A program made the position numbers and the translations under genes. Under the pieces are notes generated by a model. It did no database searches. It was not told the DNA's origin and worked only from the letters and a program-made list of their open reading frames with translations. A DNA stretch of 64,000 bases from contig CAAHEI010000074.1 of the NCBI GenBank assembly GCA_900772475.1, positions 83,008-147,007 of the forward strand. Direction: 5' to 3'. Source of the stretch: Clostridia bacterium (GTDB taxonomy: Bacteria; Bacillota; Clostridia; TANB77; CAG-465). Positions within the stretch are counted from its first letter, which is position 1; every line of letters starts with the position of its first letter. This document shows positions 21,890 to 40,995 of the stretch, in pieces.

Positions 21890-22840
21890 ATGTATGATGA
21901 TGTACCAGAATATATAAAAAATTTCTTAATGTATATGAAAAACATACAAAACAGATCTAAAAATACCGTTAAAGAATATTATTACGATTTAAGAAATGCA
22001 TTTAGATTTTTTAAAGCAGATTTATACAATTTAGATAAATCAGATTTAAATAAAATAGATATTAAAGATATTGATATAAATTTCATAAAAAAAATTAAAT
22101 TAAATGATATGTATAATTATTTAGATTATTTATCAAATAATTCAGATAAAGCTACAACTAGATCTAGAAAAGTTTCTTCACTAAAATCTTTTTTTAATTA
22201 TTTGTGTTTTAAAGAAAAAGCTTTAGAAATAAATCCAACTGTTGAACTTGAAATGCCAAGATTAGAAAAAAGAAATCCAAAATATTTAACTTTAGATGAG
22301 AGCCTCTCTCTCCTCCACTCCATTGATGGAAAATTTGAAAAAAGAGACTATGCTATTATAACACTTTTCTTAAACTGTGGGCTTCGTTTATCTGAGCTTG
22401 TAAATATAAATATAAAGGACATAAAAGGAACTTCATTAAGTGTAATTGGTAAAGGTAATAAAGAGCGTAGTTTATACTTAAATGAAGCCTGTAAATCTGC
22501 CATTGATGATTACATTAAAGTTAGGCCTAAGGATAATCTAAAAGATCGTGATGCTCTATTTATAAGTAGTTTTGGTAAAAGAATTAGTAATAGAATGGTT
22601 GAGATGATTGTAAAAAAATATGTAATGCAAGCGGGTCTTGATCCAAAAAAATATTCTCCGCATAAATTAAGGCATACCGCAGCTACTCTTATGTTGAAGT
22701 ATGGAAAAGTTGATATAAGATCATTACAACAGGTTTTGGGACATGAAAGTATTTCAACTACTGAAATATATACCCATGTTGATAATGAACAAGTAAAAGA
22801 TGCCCTTTCAAAAAATCCTTTAAATAGAAAAAATATATAA
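21890..22840 (+). CDS. Tyrosine site-specific recombinase, XerC/XerD family
   Basis: N-terminal SAM-like core-binding domain. The catalytic region has GLRLSEL, HKLRHTAATLML and LGHESISTTEIYTHV (R-H-R-Y signature). SD GAGGTGA is present. Confidence 0.85.
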   Translation: MYDDVPEYIKNFLMYMKNIQNRSKNTVKEYYYDLRNAFRFFKADLYNLDKSDLNKIDIKDIDINFIKKIKLNDMYNYLDYLSNNSDKATTRSRKVSSLKSFFNYLCFKEKALEINPTVELEMPRLEKRNPKYLTLDESLSLLHSIDGKFEKRDYAIITLFLNCGLRLSELVNINIKDIKGTSLSVIGKGNKERSLYLNEACKSAIDDYIKVRPKDNLKDRDALFISSFGKRISNRMVEMIVKKYVMQAGLDPKKYSPHKLRHTAATLMLKYGKVDIRSLQQVLGHESISTTEIYTHVDNEQVKDALSKNPLNRKNI

Positions 22841-22876: not shown

Positions 22877-24202
22877 TTACTCTAAATATGGAATTACTGT
22901 ATCTACAATTGTATCAACTGCTGATTTTGAAATAATACCAGCTCTATATATACTTGGTGTACATGGTTTCTCAATTATTGCATTGAAAAGCTTTTTTGTA
23001 TCATTTTCTACATTCGTTGCAATTCCCAAATCACTATAATATTTAGCATTATCTGTTTCCTGTCCTTTAATTGACGCATAAAATATCTTGCATCCAGATT
23101 TGGAAACAAATTCAGATGACATATTTCCTCCAGCTTTGCCGATTACAACTTCACAAGATGATATCAGATTTTTCAAGTCGCTTGACGCAACATACTTAAA
23201 AAGTGACATTGTAGACTTGTAATTTTCGTGAATTTTTTTTGCAAAATTATATGGCTTTCCCTGACCAGAAATACATATAAGCTTCTTATTATTTTCTTTG
23301 CAGAACCTTACAAGTTTTGGAAGAATCTTTATACCCATACCAAGACCTTCTGCACTTCCTGGAACGAAAAGAACAGTATCTGGTACAATATTTGATGAAT
23401 CAGCTTCTCTATCGAAGAAACATGGATTTGTTCCTATATATATAGGTCCTTTTGAATCCTTCAAATATGGATAAATTTTAATACCATTCTCCCAAGAAGT
23501 TTTTGAAGCGACAAAATAGTGCAAATTACTTACATCGCCATAGGAAGACATAGCAAAGCCTAACATTTCAATGTCTGTAACAACAACTCCTGCAAACTTA
23601 ATACAAGGATTGTCTTCTACAATTTTTGAAAGAATTGCATTGGAATATGGATAGGTTGAAAGAACAACTTTTGGAGCAATTTTATTAATCAGCTTTTTAA
23701 GCTTTTTTGAATAAAGAATTTTAAATATAGGAGCTATATCAAATCCCGTTTTTTCTGGATCGATTTCACCTCTTACAACTTTATTCCAAATATTTTGTCC
23801 AAGTTTACTTCTTGATAATGTAACCCATGCTTTATCATTAAGTTTAGCTACTGTTGAAGAAAACAAAGATAAAGTATCTACGATAATGACATTTTTTTCT
23901 GTTTTTTCAGTAAGTTTTTTTGCAATTGCCCTTGTTGGTGCTCTATGTCCATTGCCTGCATGGCCTGTAAAAAGAATACAATCAACAGATACGTTATAAA
24001 GTTTCATAAACTTTAATAATCCTAAAATTGATTCATATGAAGTATATATACTATTATTATATACTTCATCAAAATCAAGATTTATGTTTGCTGTTAATTC
24101 TTTTTCATATAACTGCCGTTTTAAAATTGATTCAATTTGCATAACATTTTCTATATCCATATGCGTAAACTTGTTCGTAATATCAGCTCTAATCCAAGCC
24201 AT
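22877..24202 (-). CDS. Glycosyltransferase, MGDG-synthase/UgtP-like (GT28-type) with an N-terminal extension
   Basis: FTGHAGNGHRAPTRAIAKKL resembles the GNGH motif of diacylglycerol glycosyltransferases, and the C-terminal half is Rossmann-like. SD AAGGAGG is present. Confidence 0.6.
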   Translation of the reverse strand: MAWIRADITNKFTHMDIENVMQIESILKRQLYEKELTANINLDFDEVYNNSIYTSYESILGLLKFMKLYNVSVDCILFTGHAGNGHRAPTRAIAKKLTEKTEKNVIIVDTLSLFSSTVAKLNDKAWVTLSRSKLGQNIWNKVVRGEIDPEKTGFDIAPIFKILYSKKLKKLINKIAPKVVLSTYPYSNAILSKIVEDNPCIKFAGVVVTDIEMLGFAMSSYGDVSNLHYFVASKTSWENGIKIYPYLKDSKGPIYIGTNPCFFDREADSSNIVPDTVLFVPGSAEGLGMGIKILPKLVRFCKENNKKLICISGQGKPYNFAKKIHENYKSTMSLFKYVASSDLKNLISSCEVVIGKAGGNMSSEFVSKSGCKIFYASIKGQETDNAKYYSDLGIATNVENDTKKLFNAIIEKPCTPSIYRAGIISKSAVDTIVDTVIPYLE

Positions 24203-24306
24203 ATTATAACCTCCTTAATTAATTATTAAAAATTTATACATATAACTAAGTATAATTATACCACTTAGTTGAACACTTGTCAAATAAGTACTACCTTATA
24301 ATTAAA

Positions 24307-24615: not shown

Positions 24616-24715
24616 ATATAACCACCTCGTGAACTTTTGTTCTTTACAAGGTATATTATATAATATAAACAAATGTTTGTCAACTCTTTTTTGTATAAAA
24701 AAGAATATTTGTTCT

Positions 24716-25392: not shown

Positions 25393-25422
25393 TTGACATA
25401 TTATGTAAATACGTGGTATAAT
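25393..25422 (+). promoter_or_regulatory. Sigma-A-type promoter candidate for 25473..26612
   Basis: TTGACA, 18-nt spacer, TATAAT, about 50 nt upstream of the ATG. Confidence 0.5.
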
Positions 25423-25472
25423 TATGTAAATTGTTATACACTTTTGTTGTATTATATAAAAGGAGTGAAATA

Positions 25473-26612
25473 ATGAAAAAATCAGTAGTCTATGCTGTTG
25501 ATGCATTAGAACCAAATAATGTAGCATTAATCGCAAAAGATATTAATGATGAGTCAATTGAAAAAATTATAATTCCTACATTTTTACTTAAAGAAATAAA
25601 GCGGAATTTTAGCTTTAATCAATTGTATGCAATTATAAAACTGTTGTCTACATCAGCCAAAATTGAATATATTGATTTCCCAACTATTTATTCAGTAGAT
25701 GACAGCCATAAAGCAGGTGCTTGCTACAGAAATTTTGTATTATGCCTTGTAAGTAATCGAAAAAAATACAAAAACTTGTTTGTAAAAACAGATAATTATG
25801 ATTTAACGCTGGAATGTATTAAGAGAAATTTTCGCATTTTTATTAGAGAGGAGTATAGTAGTAAATTACTTAATTATTGTGATGAACTTAAAGATAATAT
25901 TGTGGTTCCTAAAACCAAAAGTCTTGTTATAGACACATCGTATTTTGTATATATGTTTAAAGAAAAAATTGGTTTAAACATGTTATTCGACCCAAATATA
26001 AAGAAAATATTTTTATCAGTCAATCTGGAAGAATTGATTAAAATACAAAGTATGGATGTATTTTATTTATTGGTCTTTTTACTAAACAATAGAAAGAAAT
26101 ATAACATAAAATACGTCGTTGAAAACAAGGCATATGACAAAAGCAGCTGCAGTTATATACATGATCTTTTAATAATTACCTCTGCTCTTGAAAATATTAA
26201 TAAAGAAGATTTAACTATTTGTTCTGCAGATCTCGAATTTATTATTCAATGTCTTGCTCTTGGAATAAATACAATTCAGGCTGTCATACAGCACCAAAAT
26301 AATAATTCCAATGAGTGTGAAAAAATTATTGGATTGGATGAAAATTCCAATAATTCGAATTACACTAAATCTTTTCCTATTAAAATGAAAGCTAATACGG
26401 CATATCTTTCAACAAGATATATTTTAGTAGTATATGAAGATATTGCAAGTAAAATGTACGCTAAATCTTTTAAATTTAACAATAAAAGTTTTTTTAAGGC
26501 TACCGTTGGAAAATATGTTAAAATCTATAATCAGCAATTTCTTTATAAAATTATTGAAATAAACATAAATACCAATACGGCTAAACTTGAGAGAACAACT
26601 TTAAAGGCATAG
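25473..26612 (+). CDS. Hypothetical protein, possibly two tandem PIN-like domains plus a C-terminal beta-rich domain
   Basis: SD AAAGGAGTGA precedes ATG 25473. Two segments show a D...E...(T/S)xD pattern: AVDAL / LLKEIK / KTDNYD, and VIDTSYF / NLEELIK / CSADLEF. The domain call is tentative. Confidence 0.45.
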   Translation: MKKSVVYAVDALEPNNVALIAKDINDESIEKIIIPTFLLKEIKRNFSFNQLYAIIKLLSTSAKIEYIDFPTIYSVDDSHKAGACYRNFVLCLVSNRKKYKNLFVKTDNYDLTLECIKRNFRIFIREEYSSKLLNYCDELKDNIVVPKTKSLVIDTSYFVYMFKEKIGLNMLFDPNIKKIFLSVNLEELIKIQSMDVFYLLVFLLNNRKKYNIKYVVENKAYDKSSCSYIHDLLIITSALENINKEDLTICSADLEFIIQCLALGINTIQAVIQHQNNNSNECEKIIGLDENSNNSNYTKSFPIKMKANTAYLSTRYILVVYEDIASKMYAKSFKFNNKSFFKATVGKYVKIYNQQFLYKIIEININTNTAKLERTTLKA

Positions 26613-31855: not shown

Positions 31856-33907
31856 TTATTTTAAATAATCTTCAATTATTTTATACATCCATGCAGAGGA
31901 ACCTGTATACCAAGTCCATCCACCTCTCCCAGGATGTTCAGGATTAGAATATATATCTGCTGCTACTACATATGGCTCAACCATATATTTATCTACTTTT
32001 TCTTTGGTATCACTATGGTAAATAGGATTTAAAAATTTTAATATTTCAATTCCCTTTTCCTTATTTTTTAATTCAAAATATGCTTTTGAAAACCAAGTTG
32101 CGCCATGAGTATATTGTCCTCCATTTTCTCTTGTCCCTGGAACATATGCCTTTATATATCCAGGATTATTTTTAGGTTTATCAAACGGTGGATATAGTAG
32201 TCTTACTACCATATTTTCCTTATCAACAAGATAATTATATGCACATTCCATACATGTTAAAAGTTCATTTTTTACATCTTTATCATTTATCATCGAAATA
32301 ACAGCCCAAGACTGAGATATAATATCAACTTTACACTCTTTATTTGAGTACGCACCAAGCACTTCACCATTTTCAAAAAATGCTCTTACAAAATGATCGC
32401 TATCCCAACAATTTTCAATAATGCTATGCTTTAATAAATGTCTTTCTCTTTTACATGTTTCAACCATTTCATTATCTTTCATATATTTTGCTATGCTAGA
32501 AAATCTATCTAAAACATTCATCATAAAAAATGTAAGCCATACTGATTGACCACGTATATTGCTAAAGCCATCATTCCAATCACCATCTCCAATATCAAGT
32601 AACCCATTTGAAGGATTCTTTCTTGATAAGCCATATGTAATTGTCTTTTTTGCATGATTATAAACACTATCTTCTACATTAATATTGTGATAAACATCAT
32701 AAAGTTCTCTTCTATTTCCCATTAGTTTATCTTCTAAATATTTCGTTTTCTCTTCTAATACAGAGTAATCTTTAGTTTTAGATATATATTCACTTAAAAC
32801 ATAAGGAAGCCATAAATAATCATCACTAAAATATGTCCTAATTCCTGCAGAGTTGTGTTCATGCCACCAATGCAAAACATCACCTTTTTCAAACTGTTTA
32901 CTTGAATTTAAAATTATTTGATTTCTTGTAATCTCAGGCGAAGACGAAATCAAGGCTAAGGTATCCTGAAGTTGATCTCTAAATCCAATAGCTCCTCCTG
33001 ATTGATAAAAACCACTTCTAGCATAAAGTCTACATACTATAGTTTGATATAAAAGCCAACCATTTGCCATTATATCAATATATTCATCACCAGTGTTAAA
33101 TTTTGTGTTTGGTACAACAAGTTTCTTCCAGTATTTTTTAGTTTCATTATATTCTTTTACAACGTTTTTATTTGATGAATATTTATTTTTCATGCTTTTT
33201 ATATACTCTTTAGTTTTTGTTTTATTTGCACCTAAAATTATCGAAAATTCTTCTTTTGAATTTGGAGCTATTACTATATTTAAACTTAAGTTATAGCTTT
33301 TTGTATCAAATTCATACGTTGTGTTATCACTATCTTTTACAACAAATTCAAATGCTTCGCACTCAGAAAAATCAATACTATAAGGATTTTTTAAAATCAT
33401 TGTATTATCTTCCTCTTTACACAATATATACCCAGCATTTGTTTCCTGAGATACTCCAAGAGTCGGTTCTAATTTATATTCAATTTTTACATTTTTCTCT
33501 TCTCCATAATTATTTTCAAGTGTAATATATTGAATTTTTATATTATCTTCTTTAGGAATAAATATATCCATAGTTTTTCTTATATACTCTTCTTCCTCAA
33601 GAACTCTTGTATATCCAAATCCATAAACTAAATTATAGTTTTTTTCAAATATTCCCTTAAAAGATTCACCAGGCTTAAATTCAATCCAATCATTGCACCA
33701 ATCAGTAAGCTTATATTCCCTACTATTAATATAATAGGTATACACGGTACCATAACTTGAAATTATAGTACCGAAATTTTTATTAGCCATTACATTACAC
33801 CATGGAAGAGGAGTATTAGTATTTAAAATATGATACTCATCTTCATTTTTAGAAAAACCTCCATATGAATTAAACGCAATGTAATCTGAAGTATTACCTA
33901 TTTTCAT
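31856..33907 (-). CDS. GH94 glycoside phosphorylase module (cellobiose-phosphorylase-like), corresponding to the C-terminal domain of cyclic beta-1,2-glucan synthases
   Basis: N-domain PLPWCNVMAN. Catalytic-domain motifs FRDQLQD, RTYFSDDYLWLPYV, IGDGDWNDGF, GGQYTHGATW and GGWTWYTGSSAW. The start is ambiguous (ATG 33934, 33919 or 33907). 33907 lies 4 nt after the upstream stop, with GGGAGG 12 nt upstream. Confidence 0.85.
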   Translation of the reverse strand: MKIGNTSDYIAFNSYGGFSKNEDEYHILNTNTPLPWCNVMANKNFGTIISSYGTVYTYYINSREYKLTDWCNDWIEFKPGESFKGIFEKNYNLVYGFGYTRVLEEEEYIRKTMDIFIPKEDNIKIQYITLENNYGEEKNVKIEYKLEPTLGVSQETNAGYILCKEEDNTMILKNPYSIDFSECEAFEFVVKDSDNTTYEFDTKSYNLSLNIVIAPNSKEEFSIILGANKTKTKEYIKSMKNKYSSNKNVVKEYNETKKYWKKLVVPNTKFNTGDEYIDIMANGWLLYQTIVCRLYARSGFYQSGGAIGFRDQLQDTLALISSSPEITRNQIILNSSKQFEKGDVLHWWHEHNSAGIRTYFSDDYLWLPYVLSEYISKTKDYSVLEEKTKYLEDKLMGNRRELYDVYHNINVEDSVYNHAKKTITYGLSRKNPSNGLLDIGDGDWNDGFSNIRGQSVWLTFFMMNVLDRFSSIAKYMKDNEMVETCKRERHLLKHSIIENCWDSDHFVRAFFENGEVLGAYSNKECKVDIISQSWAVISMINDKDVKNELLTCMECAYNYLVDKENMVVRLLYPPFDKPKNNPGYIKAYVPGTRENGGQYTHGATWFSKAYFELKNKEKGIEILKFLNPIYHSDTKEKVDKYMVEPYVVAADIYSNPEHPGRGGWTWYTGSSAWMYKIIEDYLK

Positions 33908-33911
33908 TTTA

Positions 33912-36900
33912 TTATACATCCTCCCTATGATCATATGTTAATTCTTTGTTTACTAACTCATCTGCTGTATCATTTTCTTCACTAACTGTTAAAAGTTCTC
34001 TAACATCCTTAATATATCTCTTTGCAAGAAAAGATAATAGATCAATTTCATTTTTATTTAAGACATTTATATTAAGTAAATATATATTTCCTTTTGTAAT
34101 ATCTGAAAATATAGCTCTATCTAATCTAGTTCTTAAATATGTATAAATAGGTCCATTTTGTTTTTGTGCCTCATCAATTAAAATTACAATATCTAAATCA
34201 ATTTTTCTACTTTTAACATAGTCCATAAAGCTTATTACTTCATTAATTATTCCAGCATTTTCAATTTTATCAACATATACAAGTATAATTGGTAAATCAC
34301 CAGAAATTGAGTACTTCCATAATATAGACTGATTTAGTGACTCATTCCAAAATTTGTTATTATTTAAATTTGTTTTTCTAAATAATACGTCTTTTAATAT
34401 ATTGTTATATACTTGAGCTTTACCATTTTCAAGTTTTAAGTATCTTGCCTGAATGCTGTTTAGCTCACTTGCAAGTTTGAAATGTTCATCTATTGTAACT
34501 TCATCTAAATTAACAACGGTATTTGAAATCTTATATTTACTATCTGCAACACCTAAAATGTAATAAAATTCTTGTCTTTCATGTGGATCTAGTATAATTG
34601 TTGCTCTATATGATAGTATTGGCCATAAAGGATATTTAACAACATTTTGGTTATATGCCTCATCAGGATTTTTTATAATCTTTTGCTTTTCAGTTTCTAC
34701 CTCTTTATCCAGATCTATACCGATAAGTTTAGTATATACAAATAAATCAGTATCTTCTTCATTTTTCTTTCTTTTACTTGCAACAAGTATATCTAAATCA
34801 TCGTCATAATATGTTTCAATTTGTAGATTACTAAATGAAGGATGAACAACATTTGTCATATAATCTGTCATAGCAGGTTCCATATACGTATTAATTAATA
34901 TTTCACGTCTTAAACTAGTATTGTTATATATACTTACTTTTTTTATTTCCACGTTATATTCAGGTGAAATAAAAGTAGTAGTTGTTGTTTCTAAATTTCC
35001 ATCTTCAATATATGTTTCAACCCTATTAAGTGAAGAAGTCCAAACGCACTTAGTTGAATTTTTATTATTAGTACTCAATATATTTCCATCTGTTGCACTA
35101 AATCTATTTCCAGACACTTTATCAGTAAGATAAACAAAATTTCCTGTACTCTCTATATCAGTATATCTTTGTTTATTTACTATTTTATCTTTATATTTTA
35201 TAAAACTAGAACCAGTATTTGTAATTAGTGAAGACATATTTGAACCGCGTAAAAAAGCAATATCTAGGTTTTGTTTAAAATCAGGATTCTCGTCTACATA
35301 TACTCTTTCTGCGTAGTCACATGTAACATGAGTTGTATATTTATTAAGATTTTTTTGCTTAAATTTATTGCTATTATCACTTAGTTTTTTCTTTATTTTA
35401 GCCTTCATTCTCTCACGTTCTTTAAGTAATATCTCACACGCTCTAATATTAGGATTTCTATGGAATCTTCTTTGTATAATACCGCTGTTTATATAATTAT
35501 TAATAGCTGTTAAAATCATACCTTGGTGATGTGCCATATATGTTTTGGCAATCTTACTAGTAGAATTTTCATCTAAATGTTCTTTAGTATAATCAATAGA
35601 TTCATAAAATCCAAAAGCAGAATACATGCCTAATTTTTTTAACTTCTTAATATTTTTATATACTTTCTGCGGTGAATATTCAAGCATTAATATAGATGCA
35701 TATGGAGCAACGACAAGATAATTATTAAGTCCTCTTTTTAGTCCAAGCCATGGAATACCAAATTCTTTATATTGATAATTTAACATATCGTCTTTAACAG
35801 CATAAGCTGACTCTGATATACCAAACGGAACGTTATTTTCCTTAGCATATTTTATTTGACTATACATTGTAAAAAATAATGATTGATCAATTAACGTATG
35901 TTCATATGACTTATCAAATAAATATGGCATAAAATATTCGAATGCTGTGCCACTCCACGAAATAAGACCTTTATATCCATCAACTTTTACCAAATTTCTA
36001 GAAAGTGCAAACCAATGTTTAGATGTTACTTGCCTTGAAGCTATTGCAATAAGACTTGTAGTCCTACTTTCAGACATAAGCATATCATAGTAACTATCTA
36101 CGAGTTTACCGTTTTCTTGAGCATATCCAATTGAAAATAAATTTCTAGAAGTATCATATAGCACTGTAAAATCTGTTTCATCAATTATTTTTTGTACAAT
36201 TTCAATTATCTGATTAATTAAATGTTCGTTTTCTACTTCAATCTCTTTTTCAAATTTATTATGACCTAATAATTCGATTAAAAATTGTTTTGTTACATAT
36301 AAGCTTGCTACAAAATTTCCACTATCTACTGTAGATATAAATCTTGGTCTTAAAGGCTCTAGTGTTTTTATGTTGTACCAGTTATATAAATGTCCATTCC
36401 ATTTTTCAAGTTTTAAAATTGTATTAAATACTTTTTGAAGTCTATCTATACATTCATTTGCATCTATAAATTTTAAATCATATGCATCTATTATAGAAAG
36501 TAAAGCAAATCCAATATTTGTTGATGAGGTTCTATTTACAATTTTATATCTTCTATCTTCCTGGTAATTATCTGTTGGTAAATAGTTATTTACATCACTC
36601 ATCATACTATCAAAAAATCCCCATGTTCTTCTTGCTATTTCTATAACATCATCATTTCCTTTTTGATCTAATTTTTTTCTTCTACCGAACAAATGGTCTT
36701 TACCAAGTAAATACGCAAATATTGGAGCAATTATCATTGAAATTCCAATAAGTATTTTAAAATCAAAATATAAATCAAGACCTATACTTGATGGTAAAAA
36801 AGGTATAAAAGCTACAAAAGCACCAACTATAACATTAGGTAACATATTAAAATAATAGTATTTTAATGTGTTTTTAGATGTTTTATCTAACATTTCACCT

Positions 36901-39515
36901 GTAGTCCACTGTAGTAAATTTTTATGTGATATTAACATTCTATATATTGATTTTATAAAAGCATTTAAACATATATATGATTTATATGGAATCGTAACAA
37001 AGTTAAAACACATTGTTAAAAAAACAGCATCAATTCCATGAATAATTGGTATATATTGTACCTCTTTAGAATGTCTAATTTTTCCAAATAAAAGTATATC
37101 AAATATTGAAATAACATTTCCAAAATTAATTGCAACAAAAACTAAAAGGCAAGTTGCAGCAAATACTTTTGTAGAAACAAAGCAAGAAAGTATTATTGCA
37201 ATAAGAGCTACAACATCTAAAAGTGGTCTCCTTAAATTATCAAATATTTTCCATTTAGATAGTAAATTAAGTTTTGACTTAGGACTAATTAACCACTTTA
37301 TAATTTGCATATCTCCTCTATACCATCTATGTGATCTTTTCATATATGCAATATAATTTTTAGGAAAGCCATCTTGAACTTCTATGTCAGAAGCAAGTCC
37401 AGCTCTTAAGATTGAACCTTCCAATAGATCATGTGAAAGCACCAAATTTTCTGGTATTTCATTTGCAACTAATTTGTCAAATAATTCTATATTATATATT
37501 CCCTTACCACAAAATATTGCTTCTCCAAAAACATCTTGATAAACATCAGATACTGCAGTTGTATATATATCTAGGCCTCCAAACCCACCAAATATTTTTG
37601 AAAATATTGATTTGTTAGCATCGACAATATCAAGTCCAACTGAAGGTTGAATTAAGCCATATCCCTTTTTTACAATTTTACCATTCTTAGAAAGTATTGG
37701 TTTATTTAATGGATGAGCAACTATTGATACAAGATCCTTTGCTGTATTAAGAGATAAATTAGTATCTTCATCAATTGTAATTACGTATTTTGCATTTACA
37801 ATATCGTTGTATGTAACATAAAATCTTTTATCTACTTCTTCATCTGTGTATTTTCCTAGTACTAATTTATTAAATTCAAGTAACGCTCCTCTTTTTCTCT
37901 CCCATCCCATATAGCAGTTTTCACCTTTTGAGAACACACGTTTTCTATATACAAAATTAAATAATATATGAGATGATTTGTATTTAGCATTAAGCTTATC
38001 TAATTCTTGCTTGGCATAATCAAGTATTTTTTTATCCATATCTATAACTTCTTTATTACTTGATACGCAATCACCTATTAGCATATAGTACATATTATCA
38101 CTACGATTTGCAAGATATGTAACTTCCATTTTCTTTATCATTTGATCTAGTTTTTCTATAGAAGAAATAATTGTTGGCATGACAACATATGTCACGTTAT
38201 TTTCATCAACTGTTTTTGCAAAATCAAATCTAGGTAATATCTCTGGTCGTAAAGCTTTTCTAAAGAAGTAATTAACCAATTTTTGTGCACATTCAAAAGA
38301 CAATATAAACGTTATAACAAAAGCAACTATTATTGCACAAACTGATTTAAAATGGAATAAATTATATCCAATAAGTATAGTAAATTCTACCGTTAGTAAT
38401 AATATAATAAGAAGATACCATACAGTCTTTGTTGGTTCAATAAATTTATTATATATAACTTCTCCAATATATGATTTCTTTAACTCTTTTTTTAATAAAT
38501 ATCTATACTCTCCAATTAAGAAAAATCCTACGTGTTTTTTATATTTTTTAGAACACTCGACAGCTTTTTTAGCTACATATACTTCTGACAAGTTATATTT
38601 TTTCGCTAATTTTATAATATATTCTCTATATCTAGATTTTGTCTTATAATCACATTTTTTAAATTCGTTTGTATAATCAAGTCTTAAAGCTTCATCTATT
38701 TTACTTACTTTTTCAAATATTTCTCTAAAATTAATTCCTTGTATTTGTTTATATGCAAGAATTGCCCTACCAATATAGTCAGTGGTCTTAGCAATTTCCA
38801 TATGTTCTTTTATAATGGCTTCTTCAACAGTAAATCCAATTTTTTCTGCCTCATCTTTTAATCTATCAAAATATTTTTCACCTTTTGCGCCAAGCTCTTT
38901 TAATCTATATGACATATATTCTATAAAAGCTGTATTTGCAGTTTTTATATGATTTTCATTTATAATATAATCTTTTAAATAAAATTTCTTTCTTAAATTT
39001 AAAAATATCTCTTTACTATACTTAGAATCAGAATTTTCATTTATGATGATTTCTTCGACTTCAATTTTCTTAGCTTGAGAATTCGTAATATTTATACATA
39101 TTCTTGCAATAAATTTTAAAAGTGCAATTTTTAACATTAGAATAAAAAGATTAAGTTCTTCAGAAGTAAGATAAGATAATTTTTGATGTTCTTTTAAACA
39201 ATTCAAAATTAAATTCTGATCAATGTATCCAGTATTCTGTTCAACAAGTTCGTAAGCAAGATAAAAAATAGAAATATATTTATCCCCATCATGTGTTATA
39301 ATAGCAGGAAGCTTTTTAGACTTTAAAGATCTTCTTAATTCTTTTATTTCTTCATACTGTTCTTCTATAATATACATATTGTCAAGTATCCACTGTCCAG
39401 CAGAATGAATAGGTATTTTTAGTTCATAACTACTTTCAAGTAACTTATGTGTTTTACATATAATATTATAATTTTGCTCTGCATTTTTAAATATTGAATT
39501 TAGCGTGTGTTTCAT
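33912..39515 (-). CDS. cgs: Cyclic beta-1,2-glucan synthase-like protein: N-terminal cytoplasmic region, TM segments, GT84-type processive glycosyltransferase, (alpha/alpha)6 glucoamylase-like (cyclization-type) domain and a first GH94 N-terminal-like domain
   Basis: AGQWILDNMYIIEEQ (Cgs N-terminal signature), IDEDTNL (DxD), SHDLLEGSILRAG and RSHRWYRGDMQ (QxxRW-type). Then TSSTNIGFALLSIIDAYDL, VDSGNFVASLY, WSGTAFEYFMPYLF, ISESAY, GLKRG and YMAHHQGMIL. The start was moved to ATG 39515 (SD AGAGGGG, 9-nt spacing). Confidence 0.85.
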   Translation of the reverse strand: MKHTLNSIFKNAEQNYNIICKTHKLLESSYELKIPIHSAGQWILDNMYIIEEQYEEIKELRRSLKSKKLPAIITHDGDKYISIFYLAYELVEQNTGYIDQNLILNCLKEHQKLSYLTSEELNLFILMLKIALLKFIARICINITNSQAKKIEVEEIIINENSDSKYSKEIFLNLRKKFYLKDYIINENHIKTANTAFIEYMSYRLKELGAKGEKYFDRLKDEAEKIGFTVEEAIIKEHMEIAKTTDYIGRAILAYKQIQGINFREIFEKVSKIDEALRLDYTNEFKKCDYKTKSRYREYIIKLAKKYNLSEVYVAKKAVECSKKYKKHVGFFLIGEYRYLLKKELKKSYIGEVIYNKFIEPTKTVWYLLIILLLTVEFTILIGYNLFHFKSVCAIIVAFVITFILSFECAQKLVNYFFRKALRPEILPRFDFAKTVDENNVTYVVMPTIISSIEKLDQMIKKMEVTYLANRSDNMYYMLIGDCVSSNKEVIDMDKKILDYAKQELDKLNAKYKSSHILFNFVYRKRVFSKGENCYMGWERKRGALLEFNKLVLGKYTDEEVDKRFYVTYNDIVNAKYVITIDEDTNLSLNTAKDLVSIVAHPLNKPILSKNGKIVKKGYGLIQPSVGLDIVDANKSIFSKIFGGFGGLDIYTTAVSDVYQDVFGEAIFCGKGIYNIELFDKLVANEIPENLVLSHDLLEGSILRAGLASDIEVQDGFPKNYIAYMKRSHRWYRGDMQIIKWLISPKSKLNLLSKWKIFDNLRRPLLDVVALIAIILSCFVSTKVFAATCLLVFVAINFGNVISIFDILLFGKIRHSKEVQYIPIIHGIDAVFLTMCFNFVTIPYKSYICLNAFIKSIYRMLISHKNLLQWTTGEMLDKTSKNTLKYYYFNMLPNVIVGAFVAFIPFLPSSIGLDLYFDFKILIGISMIIAPIFAYLLGKDHLFGRRKKLDQKGNDDVIEIARRTWGFFDSMMSDVNNYLPTDNYQEDRRYKIVNRTSSTNIGFALLSIIDAYDLKFIDANECIDRLQKVFNTILKLEKWNGHLYNWYNIKTLEPLRPRFISTVDSGNFVASLYVTKQFLIELLGHNKFEKEIEVENEHLINQIIEIVQKIIDETDFTVLYDTSRNLFSIGYAQENGKLVDSYYDMLMSESRTTSLIAIASRQVTSKHWFALSRNLVKVDGYKGLISWSGTAFEYFMPYLFDKSYEHTLIDQSLFFTMYSQIKYAKENNVPFGISESAYAVKDDMLNYQYKEFGIPWLGLKRGLNNYLVVAPYASILMLEYSPQKVYKNIKKLKKLGMYSAFGFYESIDYTKEHLDENSTSKIAKTYMAHHQGMILTAINNYINSGIIQRRFHRNPNIRACEILLKERERMKAKIKKKLSDNSNKFKQKNLNKYTTHVTCDYAERVYVDENPDFKQNLDIAFLRGSNMSSLITNTGSSFIKYKDKIVNKQRYTDIESTGNFVYLTDKVSGNRFSATDGNILSTNNKNSTKCVWTSSLNRVETYIEDGNLETTTTTFISPEYNVEIKKVSIYNNTSLRREILINTYMEPAMTDYMTNVVHPSFSNLQIETYYDDDLDILVASKRKKNEEDTDLFVYTKLIGIDLDKEVETEKQKIIKNPDEAYNQNVVKYPLWPILSYRATIILDPHERQEFYYILGVADSKYKISNTVVNLDEVTIDEHFKLASELNSIQARYLKLENGKAQVYNNILKDVLFRKTNLNNNKFWNESLNQSILWKYSISGDLPIILVYVDKIENAGIINEVISFMDYVKSRKIDLDIVILIDEAQKQNGPIYTYLRTRLDRAIFSDITKGNIYLLNINVLNKNEIDLLSFLAKRYIKDVRELLTVSEENDTADELVNKELTYDHREDV

Positions 39516-39556: not shown

Positions 39557-39585
39557 ATTATATATTATATCAAAACTTTTTACAA
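39557..39585 (-). promoter_or_regulatory. Candidate promoter of the glucan-synthase operon
   Basis: Minus strand reads TTGTAA, 17-nt spacer, TATAAT, about 40 nt upstream of ATG 39515. AT-rich context makes chance matches likely. Confidence 0.35.
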
Positions 39586-40044
39586 GATTTTAGGATAATT
39601 TATTATATTAAATTTAATCAGTATTTATTATTTGTAATATGGTTCATAATATTCAAGCTAATATAATATTGTAAAAAACAAAAACACATGTATGATATTA
39701 ATTATATTTGAATGACGCAAAATATTTGTTCTCTATATACTTTTTAATTAATATAAATAAATACATAAATATTATGCATTTTAGAATATACATTTCATTT
39801 TTTTACAAATAAGTTATTCTTTATTTTTTTATTCCAATATAACATAGTATTTAATTTCTAGTGAAAAATTTAATTGGTTTGATGTATAATTATTTATAAT
39901 CTAATTAATTTTATTCATAATTGGCAAAGATTTTTCATTCAAGATAATTATATCATACGTTTGTTCTGCATAAAATATTTATTGCATATTTTTATATACT
40001 TTTCATCGCATTTTTCTACAAAGAAAGAGATAATTCCCATAATA

Positions 40045-40078
40045 CAAAAAATGAGTGAAAATTTTTCACTCATTTTTA
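40045..40078 (-). terminator. Intrinsic terminator ending the mini-ORF transcript (palindromic, potentially bidirectional)
   Basis: Hairpin ATGAGTGA-aaattttt-TCACTCAT, flanked by A6 (T6 on the minus strand) and T4. Confidence 0.7.
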
Positions 40079-40113
40079 TATAGAACTTTAAAAAGTAACA
40101 TCAAATCTAAGTC

Positions 40114-40149
40114 CTAAGTAAAACCAGAATAATAAATCATAGGTTTCAT
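40114..40149 (-). CDS. Candidate mini-ORF B, copy 2: MKPMIYYSGFT (11 aa)
   Basis: SD AAGGAG lies 9 nt upstream of the ATG; TAG stop. The peptide is identical to copy 1. Confidence 0.3.
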   Translation of the reverse strand: MKPMIYYSGFT

Positions 40150-40183
40150 TTGTTTTTTCTCCTTAAAAAGCACCGAACAAAAT

Positions 40184-40216
40184 TTAAACTATAATGTTGG
40201 ATATGAATACAATCAT
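40184..40216 (-). CDS. Candidate mini-ORF A, copy 2: MIVFISNIIV (10 aa)
   Basis: SD AAGGAGGG lies about 10 nt upstream of the ATG; TAA stop. Confidence 0.3.
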   Translation of the reverse strand: MIVFISNIIV

Positions 40217-40287
40217 ATATTAAAACCCTCCTTAAAAGCCTGCACAAAATTTAATTAGAACTAAAATTTTAATTTCATATTCTAGTG

Positions 40288-40323
40288 CTAAGTAAAACCA
40301 GAATAATAAATCATAGGTTTCAT
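40288..40323 (-). CDS. Candidate mini-ORF B, copy 1: MKPMIYYSGFT (11 aa)
   Basis: SD AAGGAG lies 6-7 nt upstream of the ATG; TAG stop. Confidence 0.3.
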   Translation of the reverse strand: MKPMIYYSGFT

Positions 40324-40354
40324 TTTTTTCTCCTTAAAAAGCACCGAACAAAAT

Positions 40355-40387
40355 TTAATCTATAATGTTGGATATGAATACAATCAT
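40355..40387 (-). CDS. Candidate mini-ORF A, copy 1: MIVFISNIID (10 aa)
   Basis: SD AAAGGAGTG lies about 10 nt upstream of the ATG; TAA stop. This is the first cistron after the consensus promoter. Confidence 0.3.
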   Translation of the reverse strand: MIVFISNIID

Positions 40388-40421
40388 ATATTAAAACACT
40401 CCTTTTAAATAAAGTTAATTA

Positions 40422-40443
40422 AATATTTCAAATTTGAAATATT
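40422..40443. promoter_or_regulatory. Perfect 22-bp palindrome (candidate operator) in the 5' leader of the mini-ORF transcript
   Basis: AATATTTCAAATTTGAAATATT lies about 20-40 nt downstream of the predicted transcription start. It is adjacent to the 5' stem-loop TTGTAAG-ttttg-CTTACAA (40445-40463). Confidence 0.35.
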
Positions 40444-40467
40444 ATTGTAAGTTTTGCTTACAACTAT

Positions 40468-40496
40468 ATTATAGCATATTTTTAATATTATGTCAA
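40468..40496 (-). promoter_or_regulatory. Consensus sigma-A promoter driving the mini-ORF array
   Basis: Minus strand reads TTGACA, TAATATTAAAAATATGC (17 nt), TATAAT. Both hexamers match the consensus perfectly. Confidence 0.6.
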
Positions 40497-40684
40497 CGCT
40501 TTTTCGCTTTTTTTATTTTTTAAAATAATTTTATAATATTAACTTTAATCAATATTTAATATTTGTAATATATTTGACATATATGCAATTTAAAATATCT
40601 ATATAGAAAATAGAGATTAAACTAAGTTAATCTCTACTATTTTAAATATCCTTTATGCTTTTGTTTACCTTTCTATTTGATTGG

Positions 40685-40846
40685 CTACATACCTCTTTCT
40701 TTTTTGTTCTGTTCAATTTTAGGTTCAATTGATTTGTTTAATTCATTAATATATTCTCTTGGAACAACATATGCAATCCTACCTTCATGTTTTACACTAC
40801 TTGCCGATTTTGCCAATAGTTGAACTCTTTTTAATAATTTAGACAA
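40685..40846 (-). CDS. Small hypothetical protein (53 aa, MSKLLKRVQLLAKSASSVKHEGRIAYVVPREYINELNKSIEPKIEQNKKERGM)
   Basis: Not in the ORF track because it is under 60 aa. TTG start with SD AAGGAGG 8 nt upstream. Candidate promoter TTGCAC-17-TAAAAT lies upstream, and the terminator hairpin TAGAGATTAA/TTAATCTCTA at 40611-40636 lies downstream. Confidence 0.45.
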   Translation of the reverse strand: MSKLLKRVQLLAKSASSVKHEGRIAYVVPREYINELNKSIEPKIEQNKKERGM

Positions 40847-40995
40847 CGTTTTTTCCTCCTTAAATAGTTATTTTATATTTATTTTTATAGGATTTTATGC
40901 TTTATTTGATTACCATTTTAACATATTATTATTAAATGTGCAACTATATTTTATGTTAAAATAGCGGCTAATTTCTAACCGCTATCTTTAATTTA

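Follow-up and report, generated by a model that had tools for sequence, protein, structure and literature searches.

A strain-variable minus-strand array of Shine-Dalgarno-led 10- and 11-codon reading frames between bipA and a cgs-like gene in a human-gut Clostridium species

Reading frames of 10 or 11 codons are invisible to gene callers, and the few proven cases of such ultra-short genes (SIP/LCP, microcin C precursors) were found via their partner genes. The LCPs are unprocessed, hydrophobic peptides of 8–10 amino acids (aa), encoded by Shine-Dalgarno (SD)-led genes and with strain- or species-specific sequences (PMC10518010). The locus described here lies in a 64,000-nucleotide (nt) stretch of DNA from a Clostridia bacterium (GenBank assembly GCA_900772475.1, contig CAAHEI010000074.1, positions 83,008 to 147,007 of the forward strand), referred to below as the window and numbered from its first letter. 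It is a compact minus-strand unit in which a consensus promoter and an intrinsic terminator enclose four SD-led mini open reading frames (mini-ORFs) of two kinds, A (10 codons) and B (11 codons), each present twice; among strains the unit varies in presence, in the number of its cistrons, and in a hypervariable patch that coincides with ORF A. The host is a human-gut species, Clostridium sp. CAG:465-like, and all unit-bearing sequences belong to this one species at ~99% identity. None of the mini-ORFs was called as a gene in any of the contigs fetched.

The unit begins with a sigma-A promoter, TTGACA-17-TATAAT (40468–40496; minus strand, as are all features below unless noted), which matches the consensus at 12/12 positions, has a TG-extended −10 box, and is the sole 12/12 match within the 2.5 kb scanned. 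A 5′-terminal hairpin (TTGTAAGCAAAACTTACAA, 40445–40463; 7-bp stem, 5-nt loop) begins at about the predicted transcription start and is followed by a perfect (100%) 22-bp palindrome (AATATTTCAAATTTGAAATATT, 40422–40443), invariant in all strains, which could be either an RNA hairpin or a DNA operator. Next come mini-ORF A1 (MIVFISNIID; ORF 40387–40355, SD 40404–40399), which is the hypervariable cassette, and mini-ORF B1 (MKPMIYYSGFT; ORF 40323–40288, SD 40335–40330), which together with its pre-SD motif AAATTTTGTTCGGTGCTTTTT occupies 40288–40356. An inter-unit linker (CACTAGAATATGAAATTAAAATTTTAGTTCTAAT, 40254–40287) leads to the second copies, A2 (MIVFISNIIV; ORF 40216–40184, SD 40233–40228) and B2 (MKPMIYYSGFT; ORF 40149–40114, SD 40164–40159; 40114–40185 with the pre-SD motif). 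This linker is common to all multi-copy arrays (the window, L022–L024, L027, L081, L082, and L084, where L numbers denote the loci compared). For all four mini-ORFs an AAGGAG stands 6–11 nt 5′ of the ATG, the spacers are A/T-rich, and the second codon of B is AAA. The second B ends 45 nt ahead of an intrinsic terminator (40047–40077; 14-bp stem plus T-run) that is symmetrical and formally bidirectional. The predicted transcript is ~420 nt in the window and ~250 nt in most strains. Beyond the terminator is an AT-rich spacer (39645–40044) that always travels with the unit and holds a decayed copy of the unit promoter (40014–39979; repeat D4, 72%); ~196 nt of it are missing in L014 and L017. CodY or cre operators were considered for the two leader palindromes and rejected because the spacing does not suit the consensus sequences.

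Much of this anatomy had been proposed in an earlier note, made from the letters of the window alone. The promoter, hairpin, palindrome, four mini-ORFs, and terminator were all recovered in place, exactly or to within 1–2 nt, and the modular recurrence of the pre-SD motif was borne out. The tandem repeat also stands, but not its ~130-nt unit: the period is 171–174 nt, of which ~120–138 nt match at 96–98%.

Neither the promoter nor the cluster of mini-ORFs looks like an accident of composition. Perfect consensus promoters number four in the window against 0.22 expected, and such sites are therefore taken to be real signals in this genome. The mini-ORF cluster exceeds chance because SD-led ORFs of 3–17 codons are rare in the background, with 8 per ~200 kb of sister-species cgs-upstream sequence and ~7 others across both window strands (128 kb), several of these inside long ORFs; the unit has four inside 275 nt of intergenic DNA, of which just A and B are independent. 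The three other perfect promoters (TTGACA-N16-18-TATAAT) are at 24255–24283 (−), 24655–24683 (−), and 25393–25422 (+), surrounding ORFs at 22877–24202 and 25431–26612 for which Pfam matches are weak or lacking.

The reading tentatively preferred here, at somewhat short of an even chance, is that the unit specifies a small, stable, polycistronic mRNA yielding unprocessed ultra-short peptides. The consensus promoter would drive transcription, whether constitutive or repressor-controlled; the 5′-end hairpin and the strong 3′ terminator would protect the transcript, giving an abundant and stable RNA; and ribosomes would start independently at each AAGGAG–ATG site, releasing A as a 10-residue and B as an 11-residue peptide (27 residues for B in the commonest allele), both unprocessed. 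The peptides, and not the RNA, would be the product. A, under diversifying or balancing selection, would act as the “code” element specific to a strain, and B as its constant partner, with a dosage altered through tandem amplification; the receptor or target would be unlinked to the locus, on the same principle as leaderless SIP/LCP peptides or multi-cistronic small-peptide operons. The sequence anatomy, the variation between strains, the hypervariable patch, and the changes in copy number are observed; transcription, translation, and a role for the peptides in signaling or antagonism are what we infer.

Six architectures were seen within the species. The commonest is A(MIIGIFRITD)-B(27 aa), found in L013–L021 and L079. 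L083 has A(MIVFISNIID)-B(11 aa); the window form, A-B-linker-A-B, is shared with L022 and L084; L023 has A(MIVGIFRITD)-B-B-B3; L081 and L082 have A-B-B3; and in L025+L024 and L026+L027, A-B is followed by a ~0.9-kb insertion with a zinc-ribbon gene and then by linker-B(27 aa). Gain and loss proceed by whole cistrons, with apparent junctions at the shared AAGGAG, TAAATTTTGT, and linker motifs.

ORF A stands out from the general divergence of the strains. Between the window strain and L013–L021, the bipA, cgs, and neighboring 53-aa genes and the non-coding spacer all diverge by ~1%. In ORF A, 7 of 27 nt differ, where ~0.3 would be expected; all seven differences change the amino acid, none is an indel, and the length, ATG, and TAA are kept. 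Three kinds of allele result (MIIGIFRITD, MIVGIFRITD, and MIVFISNIID/V). The conservation of the unit in general speaks for recent ancestry and not for constraint, because the non-coding spacer diverges by ~1% too. Against that background, neutral divergence over the time that separates the strains cannot account for the A patch, which must either be under selection, diversifying or balancing, or have been imported. The population data thus speak for an ORF A whose sequence is important.

Elsewhere the changes are of several kinds. The promoter and the transcribed unit outside A show, by tally, ~9 differences per ~250 nt, including three −10 box alleles (TATAAT, TATAGT, and TAAAAT), loss of the TG in the a2 strains, and a G-to-A change in one strain group that breaks one pair of the 5′ hairpin. 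Codons 1–11 of B are identical in every copy apart from B3, which encodes MKPIIFRLCR (10 codons) and in which ~22 of the 35 nt of B have been replaced at exactly equal length. Codon 12 of the terminal B is TAG, TTG, or TGG, giving a product of 11 or 27 aa, and because it is not always a stop, B is 27 aa long in most strains; the stop of this longer form (TGA) sits within the 5′ arm of the terminator. No other copy that could have been the donor of the a1, a2, or B3 cassettes was found in the 682 kb of sequence fetched. A mechanism of the diversity-generating retroelement type found no support, the substitutions not being adenine-specific and the ORFs scanned including no reverse transcriptase.

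As to whether these modules act as coding sequence or as RNA, several observations point to translation. Every cistron copy retains its ATG, an ideal SD–ATG spacing (apart from B3, where the SD is spoiled), and, in B, the AAA second codon. Homologous frames broken by indels had been named in the earlier note as an outcome that would count against coding; within the species, ~20 cistron copies show no frameshift and no lost start codon. Amplification and deletion in whole-cistron steps (A-B, A-B-A-B, A-B-B-B3, A-B-B3) point to translated modules, and the equal-length replacement in B3, which still leaves a 10-codon ORF, was counted on the same side. Folding of the A and B modules is on a par with that of shuffled sequences (z −0.9 to +1.1). 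RNAalifold and pair counting over the six haplotypes gave no compensatory changes, and variable columns were not depleted in predicted helices; a conserved RNA structure was rejected on these grounds.

A good deal nonetheless weighs against peptides as the product. The unit as a whole folds modestly better than shuffles (z −2.25), and a predicted helix between the SD of A and a pre-B CUUUUU stays paired despite three changes that each affect a single side (U-A/U-G, G-C/G-U, and U-G/C-G), a persistence equally compatible with a role at the RNA level. The end of B is not conserved, as its codon 12 illustrates, and the SD of B3 has been lost (AAGGAG to AAGTAG). Retention of frame carries little statistical weight, because it was observed in one species at ~99% identity; a 10-codon frame would stay open by chance with a probability of ~0.4 at this composition (our own estimate), and a hydrophobic, I/F-rich composition is the default of a 26%-GC genome. 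Neither next to the unit nor among the window ORFs scanned was there an RRNPP/Rgg-type receptor, an exporter, or a modification gene, and none of the 27 window ORFs scanned with Pfam was a regulator of the helix-turn-helix or tetratricopeptide-repeat type.

Several of these points would fit a non-coding or dual-function small RNA (sRNA), in which a stable RNA of 250–420 nt is itself the product. The AAGGAG motifs and short ORFs would then load ribosomes or 30S subunits for stability, or act as decoys for C/U-rich sRNAs or a CsrA-like RNA-binding protein, and the variable patches would be specificity or seed regions, or unconstrained loops. The layout is sRNA-like, with an orphan promoter, a 5′ hairpin, and a strong terminator between convergent or unrelated genes, and the modules are tandemly amplified as in multi-motif sponge RNAs. 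To the surviving SD-A/CUUUUU helix, the unconserved stop of B, and the folding of the whole unit can be added the B3 cassette, which forms a far more stable hairpin (−20.6 kcal/mol, z −3.3). One argument against such an RNA is that a decoy would have no need of an ideally spaced ATG and an AAA second codon, yet these are retained in every copy. The shuffle-like folding of the A and B modules, the lack of any compensatory double change, and paired columns that are no poorer in variable sites than others also speak against it, and complementarity to nearby genes is within chance. The best Rfam hit, “freshwater-2,” came from a permissive search and was taken as noise (19.7 bits, the gathering score being 49.9; E 2.8). 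An RNA product seems doubtful on balance, though a serious contender. A peptide product and a structured sRNA were both among the options the earlier note had raised, and both stay in play.

The setting of the unit bears on a different account, in which it has no function at all. It belongs to a strain-variable island of ~1.3 kb (39645–40957) bounded by the bipA terminator and the cgs promoter region and made up in the window of a 53-aa orphan gene, the mini-ORF unit, and the ~400-nt AT-rich spacer, in that order. Contigs with an identical BipA protein show three states of the bipA–cgs interval. In the empty state (L004, L006, and L007), window position 40958 is joined to 39644 with ~32 nt between; in an alternative state (L001–L003, L005, and the CAG:465 representative, L029), there are two small, unrelated genes for membrane proteins (121 and 149 aa); the third is that of the window, with the 53-aa orphan and the mini-ORF cassette. 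Hybrids of the three states exist as well. The interval is a hot spot: one species alone shows at least three versions of it. In every state cgs retains its own promoter (39585–39557, ahead of the cgs start codon at 39515), and its 5′ region is identical in strains without the cassette.

The cassette, taken as the unit plus the spacer (931 nt), is bracketed by direct repeats. The downstream one (39576–39640), at its right, is the native cgs upstream region; the upstream one (40507–40571), at its left, is a copy of that sequence, 77% identical over 65 nt (repeat D3) and 90% over 42 nt. An alignment of the unit and cgs promoter regions runs through both promoters, with a score of 74 against 36 ± 4.6 for shuffles. 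From these bracketing repeats, the paralogy of the promoters, and the decayed promoter copy in the spacer, it seems probable that the cassette arose by local duplication, and recombination between the repeats could loop it out.

This origin lends itself to a reading of the unit as a young, functionless cassette, produced by duplication of the cgs promoter and recombination between short repeats, with an inherited promoter and near-neutral gain and loss; the mini-ORFs would then be by-products, or at most “proto-genes.” The very narrow distribution, with presence and absence even within the species, would be expected on this account, as would a site that collects insertions (the zinc-ribbon gene, an element resembling a miniature inverted-repeat transposable element (MITE), and the alternative islands) and the commonness of alleles that lower expression or truncate the product (TATAGT, TAAAAT, TAG, and SD loss). 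However, neutral decay explains neither a length-preserving 27-nt patch diverged by 26% in a 1% background nor the equal-length replacement in B3. The unit has an intact promoter, SDs, and ATGs in every sufficiently long contig bearing the 53-aa gene, and amplification by whole cistrons points to selection on dosage. Lack of function is rated as unlikely.

The insertions at this site have features of their own. In L025 2093–2302 into L027 1–470, an 85-aa zinc-ribbon gene with its own promoter and terminator is inserted inside the array (Pfam zinc-ribbon hits are weak). The ~0.9-kb insertion also brings a second promoter and a leader carrying two palindromes, and its insertion point is exactly after the TAG of B, with GCAC repeated at both junctions; the same arrangement is found across L026 and L027 (contig UMBS01057270.1). 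The ~190-bp MITE-like insertion (L027 1081–1270) is within the cgs upstream repeat; its terminal inverted repeats are perfect over 13 bp (GTTACTATTCAGA), and the target is duplicated over 8 bp (AATTTAAT). In L023 (8520–8700), sequence internal to bipA lies directly 3′ of the unit terminator, reflecting either a rearrangement or a chimeric assembly.

As a further possibility, the short SD-led ORFs, which share their strand with cgs and stand both upstream of that gene and ahead of an intrinsic terminator, might form a cis-acting leader-peptide attenuator, with translation of, or stalling in, A or B controlling terminator read-through into the cgs-like operon or into B itself. A ribosome terminating at the stop of the 27-aa B would overlap the terminator, and the I/V/F-rich A is loosely like ErmCL. 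That likeness, to which the earlier note had drawn attention, is weak evidence, as I/F/N/K/Y-rich peptides are to be expected from 26% GC alone. The proposal of regulatory leader peptides linked to the glucan-synthase operon fared badly: the cassette is missing in many strains in which cgs and its promoter are intact, and in these the cgs 5′ region is unchanged. The terminator is ~530 nt 5′ of the cgs start, a distance that includes the cgs promoter; no sister species has an equivalent leader upstream of cgs; an unrelated gene is inserted inside the array in some strains; the stop of the window-allele B falls 45 nt short of the terminator; and an alternative anti-terminator pairing was not evident on inspection of the sequence and folds. 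An attenuator is thus very unlikely.

Polymorphisms of the unit are concentrated in the −10 box, in the SD, and at codon 12, which could be read as the inactivation of a type I toxin: the 27-aa B would be the toxin, and the nonsense, SD, and promoter-down alleles its disabled copies. The unit is also strain-variable and tandemly duplicated in an intergenic island, and its symmetrical terminator is faced by a weak plus-strand promoter (TTGGCA-16-GATAAT, 39921–39948) from which a convergent RNA of ~120 nt might be made. But the 27-aa B (MKPMIYYSGFTLDLDLMLLFKVLYKNE) lacks an uninterrupted hydrophobic stretch, A has too few residues to span a membrane, and neither PADLOC nor Pfam gave a toxin or antitoxin match. 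The complementarity of the convergent candidate RNA to the unit is not above that of shuffles (−24.7 kcal/mol against a shuffle mean of −28.2), and an antisense partner or targets were rejected, this RNA not being complementary beyond the shared terminator and the rest of the window offering just chance 11–12-mers. The toxin reading can be set down as extremely unlikely.

Searches beyond the locus give little sign of relatives. A degenerate B pattern (M-K-P-M-I-Y-Y-x-G-F) had 0 matches in 185,579 GTDB species representatives and 0 in IMG/VR, where an A pattern gave 5 chance hits, all inside long ORFs; in the metagenome collection, the B pattern was found in just three contigs, all at this bipA–cgs locus. 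The earlier note had called for a comparison with related Clostridia, and this went against a wider distribution: in 51 related cgs loci, those of the CAG:465 representative and of 50 sister species, nothing resembles the unit at the nucleotide level and mini-ORFs nowhere form an array. Its worry that the unit might be a dispersed repeat finds no support in the window or the collections searched, there being no second copy elsewhere in the window and all hits in the collection falling at the same bipA–cgs site of one species. A dispersed genomic repeat or mobile element was rejected on this basis and on the lack of hits in phage, plasmid, and viral collections; a phage or plasmid origin was rejected as well, blastn of the unit and tblastn of the 27-aa B against the phage and plasmid collections and the IMG/VR scan for B all being empty. 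No known family has this architecture, as had been supposed: nothing reached an Rfam gathering score across the window, and the unit had no Pfam, NCBIfam, or PADLOC match. By these searches the unit is not a conserved family and is limited to some strains of one species.

The gene most closely associated with it is the 53-aa orphan (40685–40846), which has an AAGGAGG SD, a TTG start, and its own terminator (~40636–40607), and adjoins the unit in most unit-bearing strains. The exact 53-aa protein occurs in 342 blocks of the metagenome collection; it is very common in gut assemblies and limited to this species, and its relatives form just 4 clusters, all at ≥86% identity. Pfam, NCBIfam, and PADLOC searches with it gave no match, and its structure model is helix-turn-helix-like, at a low predicted template-modeling score, with no PDB match. 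The wider neighborhood, in a window of 26.4% GC, includes the housekeeping genes tig, clpP, clpX, serS, and cmk; bipA/typA is upstream of the unit on the same strand, and the cgs-like gene and then a GH94 ORF are downstream. The closest species representative is Clostridium sp. CAG:465, with 98% identity across the cgs N-terminus, and the same cgs gene is found in ~50 related uncultured gut Clostridia species. Look-ups by the exact PlsC and DUF4364 proteins gave nothing beyond the window’s own lineage.

The cgs-like gene itself (31856–39515) consists of two ORFs, of 1867 and 692 aa, with a 23-nt overlap; the first has Glycoamylase and GH94 supersandwich domains, and the second the GH94 catalytic domain. 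The split looks native, since gene calls in every related contig give this 1867-aa product. A tyrosine recombinase of the phage-integrase family (XerC/D-like; 21890–22840, plus strand) lies ~17 kb from the locus, with no evident link to the cassette.

What the unit would mean depends on which reading holds. If the peptides are the product, a hypervariable array of changing copy number, unlinked to any receptor and carried by a common gut commensal, would be a concrete and testable candidate for communication or antagonism by peptides between strains of the microbiome. If in addition they act through an unlinked receptor, the leaderless-peptide idea would reach beyond single genes adjacent to their receptors, and searches anchored on receptors would overlook a class of ultra-short bacterial genes. 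It is open to real doubt, though conceivable, that the locus represents a new kind of peptide locus in this sense, expressed by a prevalent human-gut Clostridium from a gain-and-loss cassette, with tandemly amplifiable, independently translated, unprocessed peptides of 10–11 residues, one of them strain-diversified, serving via an unlinked receptor as strain-specific signals or as antagonistic or host-directed formyl peptides. Should the transcript itself be the product, Clostridia would have a candidate stabilizer or multi-SD sponge RNA, of which no case is known to us in that group; and if the unit is functionless, it would offer a clean case of promoter duplication and repeat-mediated recombination making and reshaping a new transcription unit within a species. 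The unit is confined to part of one species and lies at a recombination-prone site. The literature searched holds no bacterial precedent for a copy-number-variable array of two kinds of 10–11-codon cistron with hypervariable cassettes.

As judged from its sequence and surroundings, the unit is real, unannotated, and without homologues, and no described class of small peptide or sRNA agrees with it in every defining respect. Like the Erm/Cat leaders, it has SD-led, I/F/V-rich ORFs in their range of 6–19 codons ahead of a hairpin; those leaders are coupled to a downstream resistance gene by alternative pairings, whereas here the downstream gene is cassette-independent and RNA coupling to it was not found. 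In contrast to type I toxins, A and the 27-aa B have no span of transmembrane length. The CsrB/RsmY/RsmZ sponges are likewise orphan and sRNA-like, with amplified GGA/SD-like modules in variable copy number, but the unit has full SDs with an ATG at initiation spacing, no stable stem-loops presenting GGA, conserved or otherwise, and no Rfam covariance-model match. We know of no multi-motif sponge RNA of the CsrB type in Firmicutes.

Among peptide operons, psm-alpha and aureocin A70 consist of tandem SD-led small cistrons for unprocessed, formylated peptides missed by annotation. Peptides of the psm-alpha type are amphipathic helices of 20–31 aa with a dedicated exporter; the tandem SD-led cistrons of the unit are alike, but peptides of 10–11 aa lack the length for such a fold, and no transporter adjoins the unit. 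In Drosophila, the apparently non-coding tarsal-less/polished-rice RNA has tandem 11-codon ORFs as its functional product. The parallel is one of analogy only, as tarsal-less is eukaryotic, lacks SDs, has a motif conserved across insects, and is unrelated in sequence.

The LCP genes are single copies, beside and usually divergent from an RRNPP receptor gene. The unit has no nearby receptor, and because the defining adjacent RopB/RRNPP receptor is absent, it is not counted as a member of the LCP family; it differs also in its tandem arrays of two ORF types, its constitutive-looking promoter, and its presence in part of one species. It does have LCP-like dimensions, with A at 10 aa, B at 11 aa, and AAGGAG 6–11 nt before the ATG, and both peptides are I/V/F/Y/M-rich, a composition that is the default for 26.4% GC. 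With LCP/SIP (PMC10518010, PMC6565748) it would share ultra-short, SD-led, leaderless ORFs with unprocessed and possibly hydrophobic products in Firmicutes intergenic DNA, and a peptide sequence that varies between close strains or species.

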